A stretch of DNA of 64,000 nucleotides from a virus: the IMG/VR virus record IMGVR_UViG_3300001798_000001; one strand, given 5' to 3'. This document shows positions 3,156-52,462 of this stretch, piece by piece (within the stretch, counting starts at the first letter, position 1; the number at the start of each line of letters is the position of its first letter). The notes beneath the pieces were generated by a model that did no database searches, was not told the origin of the DNA, and was given only the letters and a program-made list of their open reading frames with translations. The position numbers and the translations under genes were made by a program.

Positions 3156-3308
3156 CTATACTACGCTTTTAATATGCGCGATCTTTAAAACGGCCGTGAT
3201 CGCTTCACTGAACGTTTTCCCGTGCGCTATATAGCCTCCCGTGCCTCCGCGATACTTAGGCGCGCGCATGAGCGCGACATATGAACCTGCAACTTTTTGA
3301 ACGATCAT
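3156..3308 (-). CDS. Hypothetical protein (50 aa, MIVQKVAGSYVALMRAPKYRGG...)
   Basis: Fills the gap between 3151 and 3313 on the operon strand. Confidence 0.55.
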   Translation of the reverse strand: MIVQKVAGSYVALMRAPKYRGGTGGYIAHGKTFSEAITAVLKIAHIKSVV

Positions 3309-3312
3309 ATTG

Positions 3313-3561
3313 CTATTTACAAGTTATGTGTTCTGGATAATTGATACAGTATTCACCCGTAACGCTCTGCAATGCGATCATTGCAAGCGGTACTAAGGCG
3401 AGCATTGCAATGGCGAGCGAGACACCCGCCACGATCTGAAGGCCCTTGAAAATGACCCTAGCCCGAACGCGGGCCACAGTATTACTCTCTTCTAGTGCGA
3501 GGATGACGGCCGTTTTCACTCCCGAAAACTGTACCACGTTCTCACTTTTTATATTTGTCAT
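3313..3561 (-). CDS. Small membrane protein (82 aa), first gene of the leftward early operon
   Basis: Hydrophobic segment LQIVAGVSLAIAMLALVPLAMIAL; lies downstream of the promoter at 3642..3670. Confidence 0.65.
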   Translation of the reverse strand: MTNIKSENVVQFSGVKTAVILALEESNTVARVRARVIFKGLQIVAGVSLAIAMLALVPLAMIALQSVTGEYCINYPEHITCK

Positions 3562-4245: not shown

Positions 4246-4274
4246 TTGACAGGGTTCACTACATCGTATATTAT
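4246..4274 (+). promoter_or_regulatory. Sigma70-like promoter of the recombinase (leaderless)
   Basis: TTGACA (4246-4251)-17 nt-TATTAT (4269-4274); the ATG at 4282 is 7 nt downstream, at the expected TSS. Confidence 0.8.
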
Positions 4275-4281
4275 ACGAAGT

Positions 4282-5097
4282 ATGGATACAGAACGAACGG
4301 TGAGCGACTTTTTGTCGCAACTTCAAAAGGAGGGGTACTCTCCACACACGATTAAAAATTATCAGCGCGGCCTCGATACCTTCCTGAAAAAATTTAAGGG
4401 AGACGTCACACTAAAAAATATCGAAGCGGCCCTCCTCCCCACTCGCTCAAACGGCAGTCTCTCCCACAAGTCCAAGAACATCGTCATCATCCCCGTGCGT
4501 CGATGGGTCGCGTTTCTCAATGAGAAGCACGGCACGGCCATTCCCGTCGAGCAGATCAAGACCGAGCGCAATCGAAATGGTCGCAAGAAACTCGACCTCC
4601 CCGAAAAGGAAGAGGTGCGCGCCTACTTAAGTTTCAGAGACACTCCACTGTCTGACGTTGTGGTAAATCTCCTCTTCGATACCGGGCTTCGACTGTCTGA
4701 ATTGATGGCACTCAAAGTTGGAGATGTGCGCGAGCGATTCTCTATGGTCGGGAAAGGAAATAAGCAGCGCCCGGTCTACTGCACCGCGAAAGTTGTTGCT
4801 CTGGTCAACGTGTATGTGAAGACTAATAAGCTCGAACAGGGACAGCCGTTATTCCCGTACTCAAATCGGTGGATACAGCAGTTGCTCGAAGAGCGACAGG
4901 TACGGTCTGGGGTTCGCAAAAATATCACCGCACACACCCTGCGCCACCTCTATGCCGTGAACATGTTGCAGAATGGTGCCTCACTGCGCGCCATCCAAGA
5001 ACTCCTTGGCCATTCGTCGATATTGACCACGCAGATTTATACGACCGTGACCGATCAGCACCTTGACCAAACATATAAACAGTTCCACAAAAGGTAG
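4282..5097 (+). CDS. XerC/XerD-like tyrosine recombinase (271 aa)
   Basis: N-terminal SAM-like domain (YSPHTIKNY); catalytic motifs TGLRLSEL, GKGNKQR, HTLRH, LLGHSSILTTQIYT. The ORF-track TTG start at 4246 is the -35 box. Confidence 0.93.
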   Translation: MDTERTVSDFLSQLQKEGYSPHTIKNYQRGLDTFLKKFKGDVTLKNIEAALLPTRSNGSLSHKSKNIVIIPVRRWVAFLNEKHGTAIPVEQIKTERNRNGRKKLDLPEKEEVRAYLSFRDTPLSDVVVNLLFDTGLRLSELMALKVGDVRERFSMVGKGNKQRPVYCTAKVVALVNVYVKTNKLEQGQPLFPYSNRWIQQLLEERQVRSGVRKNITAHTLRHLYAVNMLQNGASLRAIQELLGHSSILTTQIYTTVTDQHLDQTYKQFHKR

Positions 5098-34086: not shown

Positions 34087-34259
34087 AGGTGGTAGAAATT
34101 AGTTTTTAATGGTTTTCCTTTCTTCCACCAGATTTCTGCAACCAGAGTCAGTTTGAAGAAAGAGAGCGCGATGATACGGTACCCGTCGCTGTGGTGGTAC
34201 GCGATGAATGACTCACCGACGTAGCTTCCGCGTTCCTGAATGACAGAGAATAATTTCAT
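34074..34259 (-). CDS. Hypothetical protein (61 aa)
   Basis: ATGA overlap with the upstream nuclease gene. Confidence 0.55.
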   Translation of the reverse strand: MKLFSVIQERGSYVGESFIAYHHSDGYRIIALSFFKLTLVAEIWWKKGKPLKTNFYHLWTE

Positions 34260-35284
34260 TTTACGTCTTGGTACTGGATTCCTGATTTAATCGGTTTCGC
34301 GAGTTCGGAACTGCCGATGTACACCTTGGGCCGAGGGTTCATCTTCTGGATCTTCTCTTTCCCATCTGACATCCAGTCCCACACTTTTGCGATGTGCGTG
34401 TATGCCTTGAACGCGGCTGTTCGGTCGACGACCCGCACGACCTCGTACTGCTTGCGGTCTTTATCGAGGCGGACGATGAGGATTTCTTCGGTTTTGAGAC
34501 CGGTGAGTTCCTTCAGACATTTATCGTACGTCGATCCTTGAATCGCATAGTCAGGCTTATCGACGGAATTCGCTGTCTTCCAGTCGATGAGTGCGAAAAC
34601 GCGCATCACCTCCCGTCCACAGTGTCCGCACATGAGATGACGAGGATTCCGCATACTCATCGCGTAATACAGATGAACGCACTCTTTACCATCGAATAGA
34701 TCAGGTGGTTTCGTTCCTTCTTTGATGACCTTTGAGACCATCATAAGGGCGTCGAGGGTGCCACCGGCCTTATGCCTGACGCTGAATACCAACTGCTCCG
34801 ATACGATAGGCTCTGCTTCGAAGTCGTTGATGAACTGTTCTGCGGAGCGCGCAATCGCCCAGAGTCGTGCGTCATCACCATCGATGTATGCGGTAATGTC
34901 GCGCGGCTTCTCGCCTTTTGCTATCCAGTCAAGGAGATATTTCTCGATGACCTTGTGTCCTGCGGTACCGACCGCGCCCGCCTCGTAGAACTGATCGCGA
35001 TGGACGAGGACGGCCGCTTTAAAGATGAGAGAGCGTTGTTCAACGCTCGCATCTTTCAGTACCTCCCAATTCTTGTCGATGTGTTCGGTTGCGAGTTTTG
35101 CGGCCCAGACTTTTAAGTGTGGAACATCGATGATACCGCTTTTGGTTGTAATCGATGCCGCGACGATGCCGGACGGTGTGTGTTCGTAGTAGTGGGCCTC
35201 GTCCGTGTGGCGCGGCACAATGAGGCCCGCAGGGATCTTGGTTGCCACTATCTCACGAATCTCCTGCACCGTCAGTTTCGCCAT
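34256..35284 (-). CDS. PD-(D/E)XK exonuclease (YqaJ/Cas4-like) with a Cys-rich insertion
   Basis: GTAGH, GGTLDAL, LIDWKT, QGSTY motifs; CVH...CGHC inserted between the catalytic D and DxK. Confidence 0.8.
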   Translation of the reverse strand: MAKLTVQEIREIVATKIPAGLIVPRHTDEAHYYEHTPSGIVAASITTKSGIIDVPHLKVWAAKLATEHIDKNWEVLKDASVEQRSLIFKAAVLVHRDQFYEAGAVGTAGHKVIEKYLLDWIAKGEKPRDITAYIDGDDARLWAIARSAEQFINDFEAEPIVSEQLVFSVRHKAGGTLDALMMVSKVIKEGTKPPDLFDGKECVHLYYAMSMRNPRHLMCGHCGREVMRVFALIDWKTANSVDKPDYAIQGSTYDKCLKELTGLKTEEILIVRLDKDRKQYEVVRVVDRTAAFKAYTHIAKVWDWMSDGKEKIQKMNPRPKVYIGSSELAKPIKSGIQYQDVK

Positions 35285-35285
35285 A

Positions 35286-35654
35286 CTAACCGAAGTCTTC
35301 GTCGTCAGCGACCGGCTTCATAACATCGATGCCGAGTGCTTTGAGATTATCTTCAGAGCCGAGCGCATGACCGACCGAGAAGTGCTTAAGCGTATTACCG
35401 CCGCCAGTCTTGGTTTCCTTGGTGTACTCGATGCGAACGATCGAGCCGGTAGGAATATCACGGAGCTTCTTCTGAAGTAATTGTGGGGCGAAGAACGGAA
35501 CGATGCCGTCCTTGGTGCGAATTTCGTAGACGTGGCCGATACCGTTTGCGGTGTTGCGCTTCTCATGATTTACAAGAAGACCTTCAACAACTGTGCCAAT
35601 CTCTTTCCACTTAACGAGTTCGCCTGACTCTACGCTTGTATAGTCGATAGACAT
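35286..35654 (-). CDS. Single-stranded DNA-binding protein (OB-fold-like)
   Basis: GTVVEG...GSIVRIEY strands and an acidic DDEDFG tail; adjacent to the exonuclease. Confidence 0.65.
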   Translation of the reverse strand: MSIDYTSVESGELVKWKEIGTVVEGLLVNHEKRNTANGIGHVYEIRTKDGIVPFFAPQLLQKKLRDIPTGSIVRIEYTKETKTGGGNTLKHFSVGHALGSEDNLKALGIDVMKPVADDEDFG

Positions 35655-35683
35655 AATTTTATTATTAACTAATAACTAATAAT

Positions 35684-35950
35684 CAATTTGTGTGCGCACT
35701 CCCCAGACCAATGGCGGTCTCATCCTTGCGGACTATCTGGAAAGAAGTACTCTCTTGGTGTCAACCGCGCCCCTTTCATTCGTAAGATGATACTTACGCG
35801 GCAACCTTCCAATACCCTAACTTCTATTTTTTCACTGACGAAAGTGGCTACTGATGACCACCGTATGTCGCGCCAGCGTCCTCCCTTTGTATATGCCCCG
35901 CATTTCTGCGTGACAAACCATTGCCGTCGGGAGAGTACGCACACAAATTG
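35684..35950 (-). ncRNA. Candidate large structured RNA (~267 nt) upstream of ssb
   Basis: 21-bp closing stem that is fully paired only on the minus strand (two G-U pairs); GAAA and GCAA tetraloop hairpins; several internal stems. Confidence 0.65.
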
Positions 35951-35980
35951 TCAAAGAACATTCAGACTCGCATACGAAGT

Positions 35981-36019
35981 CTGAAAAAATTGCGCACCGT
36001 TACTGTGCAATTTTTTCAG
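35981..36019. terminator. Bidirectional terminator-like hairpin
   Basis: CTGAAAAAATTGC...GCAATTTTTTCAG 13-bp inverted repeat; an adjacent hairpin TTCAGACT/AGTCTGAA lies at 35961-35985. Confidence 0.65.
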
Positions 36020-36188
36020 GTTTCGGCCGCCAACCCGAAGGCATCTTCTGTACGGTACGGTTAACCCATGAGCGTTCGAGTTTCATGATCCACGCGATGT
36101 CTCCTCCGGAGTACCCTTCGCAGGACAACTGCCAAATCACTTCGTTCCGTTTCCGGTACAAGTACTGTTTTGATGTTCCAATTTGCAT
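36000..36188 (-). CDS. Small HTH DNA-binding protein (62 aa)
   Basis: RNEVIWQLSCEGYSGGDIAWIMKLERSWVNRTV HTH pattern. Confidence 0.75.
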   Translation of the reverse strand: MQIGTSKQYLYRKRNEVIWQLSCEGYSGGDIAWIMKLERSWVNRTVQKMPSGWRPKPEKIAQ

Positions 36189-36209
36189 AATTTTGATTTT
36201 GACGGGGAT

Positions 36210-36283
36210 TTGTCCACAGGTCGACCCTTACAAAACAGTATAGTGGAGTTATGATGAAATAAGCAACAAAACGGTGTGGATAA
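36210..36283. promoter_or_regulatory. Overlapping divergent promoters, each with a DnaA-like box
   Basis: Minus: TTATCCACA-8-TTGCTT-18-TATACT. Plus: TTGTCCACA-8-CTTACA-17-TATGAT. Confidence 0.7.
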
Positions 36284-36349
36284 AAACTCCCCGAAGTTGC
36301 TTGGTCGAAACCCGTTAGTTCATTACTCATCAGTATAACGTACGAATCT

Positions 36350-36514
36350 ATGGACGATCAGAATACAGCACAACCAGTTGAGGAAACCGCTACCGCACCC
36401 GCAACGCCAGTCGTTGAGGAAGCAGTACCGGAGACCGCAGCGGGCGGTGAAGGTCAACCGCCAGAGGGCGGTGCAGCGGGTGAGACCGCAACTTCGGCAG
36501 CAGGAGCAGAATAG
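36350..36514 (+). CDS. Acidic low-complexity peptide (54 aa, MDDQNTAQPVEETATAPA...)
   Basis: ATG ORF, A/E/G/T-rich; followed by the hairpin GAGTCCGTAC/GTGCGGACTC. Confidence 0.55.
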   Translation: MDDQNTAQPVEETATAPATPVVEEAVPETAAGGEGQPPEGGAAGETATSAAGAE

Positions 36515-38078: not shown

Positions 38079-38245
38079 AAACAGACATCGAACGATTGAC
38101 AAAACAGTTCTACAAACTCGTCGCCGAAATAAAGGCGACGCCGCAGGATAATGTGTACCGTTTCACCCTCCTCAAGAAGAAGATGGAGAGGTGCGCGGCA
38201 AAACTGCGCCCTCTTCTTGAGGCAAAAGAAAAACATGACAAATAA
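38075..38245 (+). CDS. Hypothetical protein (56 aa, MKTDIERLTKQFYKLV...)
   Basis: ATGA overlap with YopX. Confidence 0.6.
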   Translation: MKTDIERLTKQFYKLVAEIKATPQDNVYRFTLLKKKMERCAAKLRPLLEAKEKHDK

Positions 38246-38330
38246 TTCATTACTCCGAACGCCCTTCGATATTTTTTGCTGCCCCTTGCGTTGTGGGCGG
38301 CACTCTTCGAGGGGCGTTCAGAGTAATGAA
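38246..38330 (+). other. 85-nt extended RNA hairpin before the helicase gene
   Basis: TTCATTACTC/GAGTAATGAA, GAACGCCCTTCGA/TCGAGGGGCGTTC and TGCTGCCC/GGGCGGCA stems. Confidence 0.7.
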
Positions 38331-38347
38331 TCTGCTCTATAAAAACG

Positions 38348-44708: not shown

Positions 44709-45155
44709 TTATTTTTTAGACCACTTTTTACAGAGCTTCATGTGTCCCGCGTACGCATCAGTTGCGGTGTTGTAACCCTCCATGTCTAATTCGCCACTCG
44801 TCATTTTCCACGGACAGCATTTGTATTTTGCGTCTGCCGTCTTTTCTTTCACCGCCCTAAACACCATCGTCTCGTAAGTGCGCGACATGCCAAGTTCAGT
44901 AAAGCCAAACTTTTTATGATATGCCGCGTCGAAATAGTCTCCCTTCAAGTGAAGGTTCGCTTGGTACCACTTCTTGTCGTGAATCTCTGCGTGAATGCGG
45001 CGCACTGCCTGATCGGGCCAGTACTCACCAACCGTCGACACAATATATTTACCGACACGCGTGTTGAGGTGAAAACGACAGTCGTTGCCGACAATGAGAT
45101 GCCCCGCATGTGGCATCCAGACCCATTTCTCCTTTGGCACCGTTTTTTTATTCAT
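44709..45155 (-). CDS. Hypothetical protein (148 aa)
   Basis: Operon-packed; YIVSTVG...YETMVF...H is a recurrent phage pattern. Confidence 0.7.
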   Translation of the reverse strand: MNKKTVPKEKWVWMPHAGHLIVGNDCRFHLNTRVGKYIVSTVGEYWPDQAVRRIHAEIHDKKWYQANLHLKGDYFDAAYHKKFGFTELGMSRTYETMVFRAVKEKTADAKYKCCPWKMTSGELDMEGYNTATDAYAGHMKLCKKWSKK

Positions 45156-45669
45156 ATTTGAACCACTTGTAGTATTCCATCTGCTCGTCGCCCGCGTGAA
45201 TTACGAGGAGCGGAAGGCCGTTTTTAATACGCCACCAATTCATAAAGATGCGACCTGTACGTCCGTTGCCATCTTCAAATGGATGAATTCTCTCATACTG
45301 AACGTGTAAGTTTTTCGATCGCTCTTCGAGGATTTCAGGACTCATGTTTTCGAACGTCATGTTCATTGCTTCGATCCAGTCTTCGATCGCGTATCCAACT
45401 GAAGCGGAATTCAACGCTTTGTTTCCTCCAATATAGACATCAACATTTCGAAGCATCCCTCGACCGCCCATGCCAACAATCCTGTGATCATCCCATGCCT
45501 CCGGCGGTTCCATCAGGAATGCGTGGGTACGAAGCACGTCGTTGAGGGAAAGTGAGGAACGGCCGTTTATATAATTCCACGCCTCGATCGAAGCGTTGAG
45601 ACAAACCTCACCGAATTTTCCTTCAATCCGGTTCGACTCATCTAAGAAAATTATTTCGTCTCGTTCCAT
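45148..45669 (-). CDS. Fic-domain AMP transferase, class II (internal inhibitory helix)
   Basis: Canonical HPFEDGNGRTGR; N-terminal ESNRIEG matches (S/T)xxxE(G/N). Confidence 0.92.
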   Translation of the reverse strand: MERDEIIFLDESNRIEGKFGEVCLNASIEAWNYINGRSSLSLNDVLRTHAFLMEPPEAWDDHRIVGMGGRGMLRNVDVYIGGNKALNSASVGYAIEDWIEAMNMTFENMSPEILEERSKNLHVQYERIHPFEDGNGRTGRIFMNWWRIKNGLPLLVIHAGDEQMEYYKWFKYE

Positions 45670-49877: not shown

Positions 49878-49931
49878 ATTCTTTTGTCAATGAACGCACG
49901 CGCACGCTCGCGCGTCGGGAGTAACGTACCC

Positions 49932-49969
49932 CCGCTATACCGGCTTAAACGTTTAAGCCGGTATAGCGG
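49932..49969. repeat. Perfect 38-bp palindrome (second copy)
   Basis: Identical to 1751..1788. Confidence 0.97.
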
Positions 49970-50336
49970 ACGCGCGTTACCACGCACCGCCGAACAATGC
50001 CACCACCAACAGAAACCCTATCAGCGCTCCCAAATGATGAAGATTCTTTTTTAGTTTAGGATTCATGTTATTTGTAATTTAATACTTTCTCATCTTCACA
50101 TACGAGCCACCGTAACCCGTCGTATACCCATAGCGTAAACACCCAATTTTCTAAACAGTCGGCGATTGTCCACCCCTTCAGCGTTGTATCCTCGTACCCG
50201 TCCATGTCGGCCCATTCGCGAAACTGATTTTTTAACTCCTCTTCACCCTCAAAAATACGACCGGCGCCGAACCTTGCACCTTGCCCGTCCTCAATCGTGA
50301 AGTATTTTTTATCCTCGTGTAGTACGATCATATATT

Positions 50337-51332: not shown

Positions 51333-52462
51333 ATTTCTATACTACGCTTTTAATATGCGCGATCTTTAAAACGGCCGTGATCGCTTCACTGAACGTTTTC
51401 CCGTGCGCTATATAGCCTCCCGTGCCTCCGCGATACTTAGGCGCGCGCATGAGCGCGACATATGAACCTGCAACTTTTTGAACGATCATATTGCTATTTA
51501 CAAGTTATGTGTTCTGGATAATTGATACAGTATTCACCCGTAACGCTCTGCAATGCGATCATTGCAAGCGGTACTAAGGCGAGCATTGCAATGGCGAGCG
51601 AGACACCCGCCACGATCTGAAGGCCCTTGAAAATGACCCTAGCCCGAACGCGGGCCACAGTATTACTCTCTTCTAGTGCGAGGATGACGGCCGTTTTCAC
51701 TCCCGAAAACTGTACCACGTTCTCACTTTTTATATTTGTCATTGTGCGTTTTTAGTTTTATAATGCTGAAATAATGGCGTTTTTCGGTAAGACAATATAT
51801 GTATCACCGTACGCTCTCTGGTAGTATAGGCGTACTTGCATAGTAAGTCAAGCGTATATACAGAAAGAGTACCAAAATAGTGGATAAAAACACCAATACA
51901 ATACATATTTTAAACAATGTCAATAGTATACGGCTCAACAAAGCCATATTTTAACACTCAAACGGCCGACATTTGACGCATAGGATAGGCCATATAAAAA
52001 AAATAAATCTTTTTTTCTTACTAATTTAAATACAATATCCCATTTTTGAAGCTAGCTCACTTTTAGTAATCAGAAAAGAAAAAAAATATATATGTCTTTA
52101 TAGGCCCCTCTCCCCCTTTTGGCGTTTTTTACCCTGTTTGACAAGATCGCCCGAAACGCGGAAAGCACCCCCAAAACACACTAAACGGCTATATTGAGCC
52201 ATATAATACTTCATACAATGTTATATTGTACGCACTAGCCCTATAATAGCCATAATATAAGCCATTATCAGACCCCACCGATACCCCCGACACCGCCCAC
52301 CCACGGAAGGAAAAAATACCGTTTGGGAGGTCACATCAGATCGCGGGTCGTTTTCGGTACCCCGGCACCCAAGGGAGGGGGTGGGTACCTTGTACGGGAG
52401 AATCCACAAAAATTTTTCCAGAAAATTTGACAGGGTTCACTACATCGTATATTATACGAAGT

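Follow-up and report, generated by a model that had tools for sequence, protein, structure and literature searches.

The viral DNA considered here, 64,000 nucleotides (nt) from the IMG/VR record IMGVR_UViG_3300001798_000001 (the window, meaning that whole stretch), belongs to a tailed phage of ~48.18 kb encoding a tyrosine integrase, a capsid protein, a primase and helicases; since the integrase is present, the phage is temperate. On its minus strand, a divergent promoter region with a TTATCCACA box is followed by a helix-turn-helix (HTH)-like gene, by hairpins and then by a 267-nt element closed by a long inverted repeat, which is our subject; downstream of it come a leader, the gene of a 122-aa protein with a predicted oligonucleotide/oligosaccharide-binding (OB) fold, and an exonuclease gene. 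An earlier note, drawn from the sequence alone, had proposed a structured RNA of ~270 nt on the minus strand at 35684-35950, and the inverted repeat that it reported there was confirmed. The computations presented below establish the fold of the element, its strand, its compensatory conservation, its noncoding nature and its status as an insertion.

A repeat finder places the arms of the closing repeat at 35684-35708 and 35926-35950 (25 nt each, 88% complementarity, 217-nt spacer), and the 21-nt arm has only these two sites in the 64-kb window, with a chance expectation of 0. As previously read, the two positions of the 21-bp stem that depart from Watson-Crick pairing form U-G on the minus strand, where the plus strand would have C-A. 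The helix continues beyond this core to ~27-31 bp, with a layout of 17-21 bp, a C-U mismatch, 3 bp, a GG bulge and 7 bp, which is of the same geometry in both copies of the element that we found. At this length the helix spans the two or so turns of double-stranded RNA (dsRNA; ~20 bp or more) that characterise RNase III processing signals. The minus-strand RNA folds at -102 kcal/mol (z-score, z, -5.6) and the plus-strand RNA at -84.9 kcal/mol (z -4.8), and the closing helix is still present when the full leader is folded together.

The second copy came from a phmmer search of 1.84 billion representative proteins with a 98-aa open reading frame (ORF) that crosses the element on the plus strand. 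The search returned one specific match (P0042, E 4.8e-12), whose DNA, the bacterial contig L047 (and identically L061), shares 66% nucleotide identity with the element over its full length, possesses its own inverted ends (25 nt, 84% complementarity) and scores 303.8 bits with model R1. RNAalifold applied to both copies yielded 74 pairs, every one of them standard in both sequences and none broken; 17 are compensatory (six in the closing helix, three each in helices 5 and 8, and one each in helices 2, 3, 6, 7 and 9), and a further 12-13 carry one-sided (wobble) changes. When the 3' partners were slid by 1-3 columns as a control, 37-46% of the positions paired, with 0-3 compensatory pairs. Moreover, when alignment columns were permuted within conservation classes and the structure was re-predicted each time, the whole element stood at z -9.7 and the interior alone at z -3.0 (1 of 200), the interior holding 12 compensatory pairs versus 5.2 +/- 2.0 in the shuffles. 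The two-copy consensus energy was -84.4 kcal/mol in the sense and -53.4 kcal/mol in the antisense orientation, and the antisense interior reached a column-shuffle z of only -1.8. Compared with its single distant homologue, the element covaries in a way that favours RNA structure with the minus strand as sense.

The two copies diverge unevenly. The outer part of the closing helix (P1) has a different sequence in L047 with pairing retained, through five compensatory and four one-sided changes; the outermost 4-15 nt are not the same in the two copies but covary, one inserted pair being matched on both sides. The inner, bulged section is the best-conserved part of the closing helix: the run CCCGACGGCAA in its 5' strand is the same in both copies, and its CAAYGG/CCRUUG part shows one compensatory change (U-A to C-G). 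That extension is better supported than the AGACC/GGUCU pairing suggested in the earlier note. Among the other sub-helices named there, GUGG/CCAC and CCGCG/CGCGG are kept in L047 with compensatory changes, while CGUAAG/CUUACG is lost to two mismatches. The CGCA-GAAA-UGCG hairpin, our P2, keeps a GNRA loop (GUAA in L047) and has three stem positions altered on both sides, with 1-2 mismatches per copy; it also appears in the minimum-energy fold of L047 alone. For GUCC-GCAA-GGAU (hairpin 10) the stem persists and the loop does not, since GCAA is confined to the window and the loop of L047 is larger by an 11-nt insertion. The central domain contains no pair broken between the copies, and the unpaired blocks AUCAGU, AGAGAGUA and UAGGGUAU are invariant in both.

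Table 1. The stem-closed element, its parts and the neighbouring features on the minus strand of the window.
Feature	Position	Strand	Details
Whole stem-closed element, 267 nt	35684..35950	(-), RNA sense strand	Homologue L047:648-928(-), 66% identity over full length
Outer closing helix P1, 5' strand	35930..35950	(-)	Partner 35684-35704; 21 bp, two of them U-G
Outer closing helix P1, 3' strand	35684..35704	(-)	Partner 35930-35950
Inner P1, 5' strand, C GAC GG CAAUGGU	35917..35929	(-)	C-U mismatch and GG bulge; most conserved block
Inner P1, 3' strand, GCCAUUGGUCU	35705..35715	(-)	UUGGUC and GGGG unchanged between copies
P2 hairpin with GNRA cap	35895..35914	(-)	GAAA in window, GUAA in L047; alignment A6
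Central domain: helix 4 5' strand GGAGGA, helix 5, helix 6 with invariant AUCAGU loop	35833..35884	(-)	
Second interior domain: helices 7, 8, 9	35757..35816	(-)	UAGGGUAU..AGGUUG..; YCAUC/GAAUGR hairpin
Helix 4 3' strand and hairpin 10	35722..35745	(-)	Helix 4 3' strand 35739-45; hairpin 10 35722-33
62-aa HTH-like regulator gene	36000..36188	(-)	Upstream of element; tblastn match to L023, 6e-14
Composite long hairpin	35961..36039	(-)	Terminator-like 3' sub-hairpin 35985-35961 and U-rich tail; z -5.3; straddles HTH stop codon
Leader between P1 and ATG, 29 nt	35655..35683	(-)	93% A+T, no Shine-Dalgarno
122-aa OB-fold protein gene	35286..35654	(-)	SSB-like, weak evidence
PD-(D/E)XK exonuclease gene	34256..35284	(-)	phrog_298 exonuclease, E 2e-23; relatives carry PF12705

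The element matches no Rfam family. No Rfam model (Rfam 15, 4227 models) reached its gathering threshold anywhere in the window; the earlier note had recognised no transfer-messenger RNA (tmRNA), RNase P, 6S, hammerhead or group I core. At E <= 10 nothing relevant appeared in window 35300-36400 or in L047 1-1500, ARAGORN found no tRNA or tmRNA in 35400-36200, and neither Intron_gpI nor group II introns gave a match even at E <= 10, the element being intergenic in both contexts. A group II intron was rejected, as 267 nt is too short and there is no catalytic-core match; an attC site, IS110 bridge RNA, IscB/TnpB omega-RNA, Y RNA, 6S RNA and phi29 pRNA were likewise set aside, without Rfam match and with their partner genes absent. 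Searching GenBank phages and PLSDB plasmids with the element and its ORFs (blastn/tblastn) returned only a 34-nt chance match to a gene of a Legionella plasmid. Exact stem-end patterns, scanned in GTDB species genomes, IMG/VR and JGI metagenomes, gave a single chance match (L011), otherwise unlike the window, and all 13 of the loci that the conserved interior motifs retrieved from IMG/VR failed model R1. With its filters off, this model matches any long hairpin, and such matches were disregarded.

Comparison with related phages reveals the element as an addition. The relatives, gathered via the 122-aa protein and the exonuclease (single-protein locus searches of IMG/VR gave no match), keep the primase, HTH, OB-fold, exonuclease synteny, with only 65-160 nt from the HTH stop to the ATG. 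Ten of them were compared (L001, L002, L014, L016, L017, L019, L020, L022, L023 and the P0010 contig), and model R1 matched none. In alignment with L019 and L020, a shared hairpin is followed by a leader of ~30 nt, where the window has ~277 extra bases. On this comparison the element is an insertion rather than a conserved leader, and its earlier description as part of the leader of an ssb/recombination operon does not hold as a conserved feature: related phages lack it, and its sole homologue lies in an unrelated bacterial locus. The closest relative (short contigs L012 and L013; 73% identity of the OB-fold protein) carries a different stem-closed insert at the same place (L012 1-193; 193 nt, 17-19-bp stem, z -5.0), which ends ~30 nt before the ATG, the contig beginning exactly at the stem. 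This insert was rejected as a diverged homologue (~2 bits with unfiltered R1; Smith-Waterman p 0.06-0.10). In three of the more distant relatives (L014 ~790-860, L016 ~2400-2460, L017 ~2330-2395) the OB-fold gene has a leader of ~70 nt that is rich in C and A, apparently lacks structure and repeats every six bases (NNNACA / CAGNCA); it could be protein-binding or translation-enhancing.

The homologue lies in a bacterial defence island comprising a ThsB-like TIR protein, a patatin and a CD-NTase (CBASS), and a KAP NTPase/QatB/QueC-like/TatD set (Qat); these genes occupy L047 110-502 and 1905-4753 and L062 5537-10072. The nearest neighbours of the element in L047 are a capP fragment, a Zn-ribbon protein, the ThsB-like TIR, the patatin and the CD-NTase. 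The next ORF on the element strand matches the PADLOC capP model over residues 143-241 only, and upstream in this locus there is neither a capH gene nor the peptidase half of capP; because of this, the capP/capH regulator module looks truncated where the element segment sits. The copy occupies the place expected for capH and the capP peptidase half, the switch of the CBASS/Thoeris-like/Qat island that senses single-stranded DNA (ssDNA). The L047 element is preceded, at 18 nt, by an intrinsic terminator and, before that, by a very stable hairpin, an arrangement parallel to that of the phage; both copies lie 10-18 nt 3' of a terminator-like hairpin. The region 3' of the L047 element has no convincing terminator (z -0.4), and the foreign segment reaches ~180 nt past the element.

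As to the phage itself, the window exceeds one genome length, with repeats at an offset of 48,181 (1740-1799 = 49921-49980; 3187-3516 = 51368-51697; others), so the unit of ~48.18 kb is present either as a concatemer or in circular permutation. A 48,203-nt contig from another run (L018) is identical to the window phage, and GenBank has no close relative of it. The source sample is SRR6213120 for the phage, with ERR7850080 and SRR29304061 for the bacterial locus, and a literature search on the sample accession numbers retrieved no paper. The tyrosine integrase is encoded at 4246-5097 (+) and a Fic/DOC-family protein at 45148-45669 (-). A perfect DnaA-box-like TTATCCACA at 36275-36283 (-) flanks the divergent promoters that separate the primase gene from the HTH gene, and recurs in the primase/HTH intergenic regions of all relatives examined for it (L001, L002, L014, L016, L017, L019 and L020). 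A homologue search with the 62-aa HTH protein gave no match; small ORFs syntenic to its gene in relatives show weak HTH_23/HTH_Tnp_4 matches. The two terminator-like hairpins reported upstream of the element are indeed there (35985-35961 and 36009-35993) and fold jointly into the composite hairpin of Table 1, and the UUCAG..CUGAA sub-hairpin is kept in L019 and L020, relatives without the element. Two hairpins that exclude each other overlap where the HTH gene has its stop codon (35961-36039, minus strand). The longer has its 5' arm within the HTH coding sequence and its 3' arm overlapping the terminator-like hairpin, so the choice between termination and read-through could depend on HTH translation.

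Downstream, 29 nt separate the element from the ATG at 35654 (30 nt by the earlier count), and relatives carry a similar A/U-rich stretch ahead of their ATG. The 122-aa protein has no Pfam or PHROG match; its AlphaFold model shows a beta1-3/alpha/beta4-5 topology (pLDDT 70), with OB folds of single-stranded DNA-binding protein (SSB) and RPA as the top Foldseek matches (E about 0.01). The ssb label given earlier is reasonable in the sense of a putative SSB-like OB fold, the structural matches being weak. Elsewhere in the window, immediately ahead of a 448-aa gene, 25-nt arms form a very stable hairpin at 38245-38331 (+) that folds at -53.4 kcal/mol (z -9.5) and may be a site for RNase III or for stability. 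At apparently the same position, L006 (2600-2684), L017 (975-1064), L016 (783-843) and L020 (469-561) have long hairpins that differ in sequence. Since such hairpins recur at fixed intergenic positions, dsRNA processing is suggested to be part of gene expression in this phage group.

Our best explanation, which we hold with confidence and doubt in about equal measure, is that the element is an undescribed structured RNA of ~270-280 nt, acquired horizontally by the phage lineage and located in the HTH/OB-fold leader, where it would act as follows. Minus-strand transcription would reach it through read-through from the HTH promoter, and the RNA would fold as a multi-helix body closed by a helix of ~27 bp. 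The outer part of this helix is free to covary. The inner part, which is asymmetric and invariant (CCCGAC-GG-CAA / UUGGUC-Y-GGGG), resembles a protein-binding site. By looping the insert out, the closing helix would leave the A/U-rich initiation region abutting the upstream hairpin, as in L019 and L020, so that the initiation leader of the downstream gene would keep working; such a role fits because two unrelated inserts at the same site are both stem-closed. The helix would also form a double-stranded substrate for host RNase III, whose cut would release a stable RNA of ~250 nt, give the downstream mRNA its own 5' end and thereby separate the two messages. The closing helix probably serves both purposes. 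Here we infer the transcription of the element, its cleavage by RNase III and any trans-acting role. The element is probably rare and mobile; horizontal mobility is implied by the insertion polymorphism, by the unrelated second context and by the site of both copies, immediately 3' of terminator-like hairpins.

Several points weigh against this explanation. Folded alone, the 217-nt interior is at the level of shuffled sequences (z -1.2 minus, -1.4 plus), so in single-sequence evidence the closing stem is the sole part beyond chance. The comparison involves only two independent sequences, and the consensus was built from the very pair that it scores, which biases the pair counts. Moreover, the homologue was discoverable only since one antisense frame had stayed open, which is an ascertainment bias, and the compensated changes of the outer helix would be equally expected if the arms were transposon ends. 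Finally, the two contexts have unrelated genes downstream, and the distance to them differs, being 29 nt for the phage copy and ~195 nt for that of L047.

The transposon reading, in which the element is a non-autonomous transposable element resembling a miniature inverted-repeat transposable element (MITE), with the closing helix representing a pair of terminal inverted repeats to which a trans-supplied transposase binds and any RNA fold being incidental, is in our judgement unlikely. MITEs are present in phages, though rarely (PMC11602168), and both copies here have 25-nt inverted ends. The element is present or absent among close relatives, is inserted exactly after a hairpin and lies, in both copies, 10-18 nt 3' of a terminator-like one; its second copy sits in an unrelated genome, within a defence island and adjoining a truncated capP, and the closest relative holds an unrelated insert bounded by inverted repeats at the same site. 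However, the element is single copy in the 48-kb genome, and the exact-end scans of GTDB species genomes, IMG/VR and JGI metagenomes were empty bar the one chance match. Against the empty sites of L019 and L020, which are too diverged for base-level resolution, the flanks (..TTTGA and ATTAT..) show only an ambiguous AT and thus no clear target-site duplication. The termini are diverged and the inner stem invariant, the opposite of what transposase-bound repeats should display, the interior helices covary with a strand preference, and the foreign segment in L047 runs well beyond the element. On account of the single copy, the empty end scans, the lack of a clear target duplication, the diverged termini and the strand-specific covariation of the interior, a classical MITE appears weakened as an account. 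Less probable still is a cis-acting leader of the gene for the ssDNA-binding protein, such as a riboswitch, an attenuator or an autogenous operator like that of T4 gene 32, where a structured nucleation element leads into an A/U-rich start without structure. The structure does end 29 nt before the ATG, in a stretch of 93% A+T lacking a Shine-Dalgarno sequence, the downstream protein has an OB fold, and the next same-strand ORF in L047 is the C-terminal part of CapP, an ssDNA-sensing peptidase (bioRxiv 10.64898/2026.05.16.725639). Nevertheless, every other phage with the same gene pair lacks the element, the two downstream genes are not homologous and are differently spaced from it, and the capP of L047, without its peptidase half, is probably a remnant. 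A cis-regulatory role, in which the OB-fold protein might control its own gene, is conceivable though less likely, because the relatives do without the element and the two downstream genes are unrelated.

A structure acting at the DNA level (an Frpo-type ssDNA promoter, a primosome or origin hairpin, or a cruciform near the replication genes) would suit the position between the primase and recombination modules, near the DnaA-box-like TTATCCACA sites; the element folds well under DNA parameters (z -5.2), and G-T wobble pairs would suit same-strand ssDNA equally. We nonetheless consider it very improbable, since no -35/-10 hexamers occur within or across the stem, related phages replicate without the element, no replication genes lie near the homologue in its chromosomal defence island, and the conserved GNRA loop and the many G-U pairs are typical of RNA. 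For the Frpo-like structure raised earlier, neither strand of 35684-35950 offers a promoter-like pair. A TTGACA does occur at the 5' edge, but it lacks a -10 at a workable distance, and L047 does not conserve it. Least credible of all is a small protein gene, whether the 98-aa plus-strand ORF, which is open in both copies (44% amino-acid identity, with the E value of the phmmer match given above) and called as a gene in L047, or the 74-aa minus-strand ORF at 35720..35944. Substitutions between the copies are spread evenly over codon positions (0.33/0.34/0.34, in every frame), nucleotide identity is 66% against 44% for the amino acids, and the coding scores of the two ORFs are negative (-0.15 and -0.18, versus +0.29 to +0.43 for adjacent genes). 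No gene is called at the element in the identical contig L018, the plus-strand ORF starts with TTG and lacks a ribosome-binding site, and neither ORF has a Pfam or PHROG match. The earlier note had named conservation of the 74-aa ORF as an account that would undo the RNA; with its negative coding score, two stops in L047 and no codon periodicity, this ORF does not explain the sequence. Because the codon-position substitutions are even, the sense ORF is broken and the coding scores are negative, protein coding fails as an account of the conservation and appears largely refuted already.

Beyond the structured RNA as such, we put forward, as a distinctly speculative proposal, that the two copies are the founding pair of a horizontally mobile structured-RNA family engaged in conflict between phages and bacterial defence. 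The phage copy is predicted to be expressed early, directly ahead of the gene for the ssDNA-binding protein, and the RNA could be a decoy, a regulator or a ribonucleoprotein partner of ssDNA-sensing or -binding proteins; alternatively, it could be a self-processing or mobile RNA of a new kind, directed to sites immediately past terminators. If confirmed, it would represent a new structured RNA class common to a temperate phage and a bacterial defence island, settings in which noncoding RNAs (retrons, ToxI, cabRNA, DRT noncoding RNAs) have recently proved central. A general rule is also possible, namely that leader insertions in phages are tolerated when a long closing helix loops them out, as the two unrelated stem-closed inserts at one site in sister phages would illustrate. 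The invariant bulged inner helix and the conserved loops offer concrete experimental handles, and a protein search with a spurious ORF through a noncoding element is a reusable route to homologues.

Among known systems, Neisseria Correia elements and enterobacterial ERIC sequences resemble the element as short, noncoding, intergenic inserts with inverted ends, a long RNA hairpin and a patchy distribution. Unlike them, the element is single copy, shows no clear target duplication at flanks compared with diverged relatives, and has termini less conserved than its interior, whose helices covary, with 66% identity between the two copies. The T4 gene 32 operator and the split initiation regions of T4 genes 38 and 25 likewise place a stable structure directly 5' of an unstructured A/U-rich start, and there, too, a closing helix joins the flanks, so an insert need not disturb initiation; the present element, however, splits no Shine-Dalgarno sequence, is far larger, has no known pseudoknot and is missing from relatives. 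ROOL, GOLLD and HEARO share its ornate, conserved, noncoding character and the tie to mobile DNA, whereas the element is without Rfam match to them, much smaller and much rarer (two members found). Retron msr-msd RNAs (~150-280 nt) have paired 5'/3' ends (a1/a2) around internal hairpins, as does the element with its 21-27-bp closing helix in both copies, and the phage-defence setting and conserved unpaired G residues beside the closing helix add to the likeness. In contrast to retrons, the element has no adjacent reverse transcriptase (no RVT domain in the neighbours of either copy or in 20 large phage ORFs), no Rfam match to them at E <= 10 in either copy and no evident long msd-type hairpin. 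A further parallel is provided by RNase III stems: the long-range helices around 16S and 23S rRNA in rrn operons, the R sites of the phage T7 early mRNA and the lambda N-leader site. The RNA enclosed in the element is neither rRNA nor any known stable RNA; the element differs from the simple ~60-nt hairpins of T7 and lambda by closing a 220-nt body, and from RNase III stems generally by not being conserved across related phages. Nevertheless, like these stems, its helix of at least 20 bp is predicted to lie in a polycistronic early transcript, between two cistrons and just upstream of a start codon, in a phage group where further long intergenic hairpins recur, and, like the stems of rrn operons, it is built from sequences on either side of a folded RNA.

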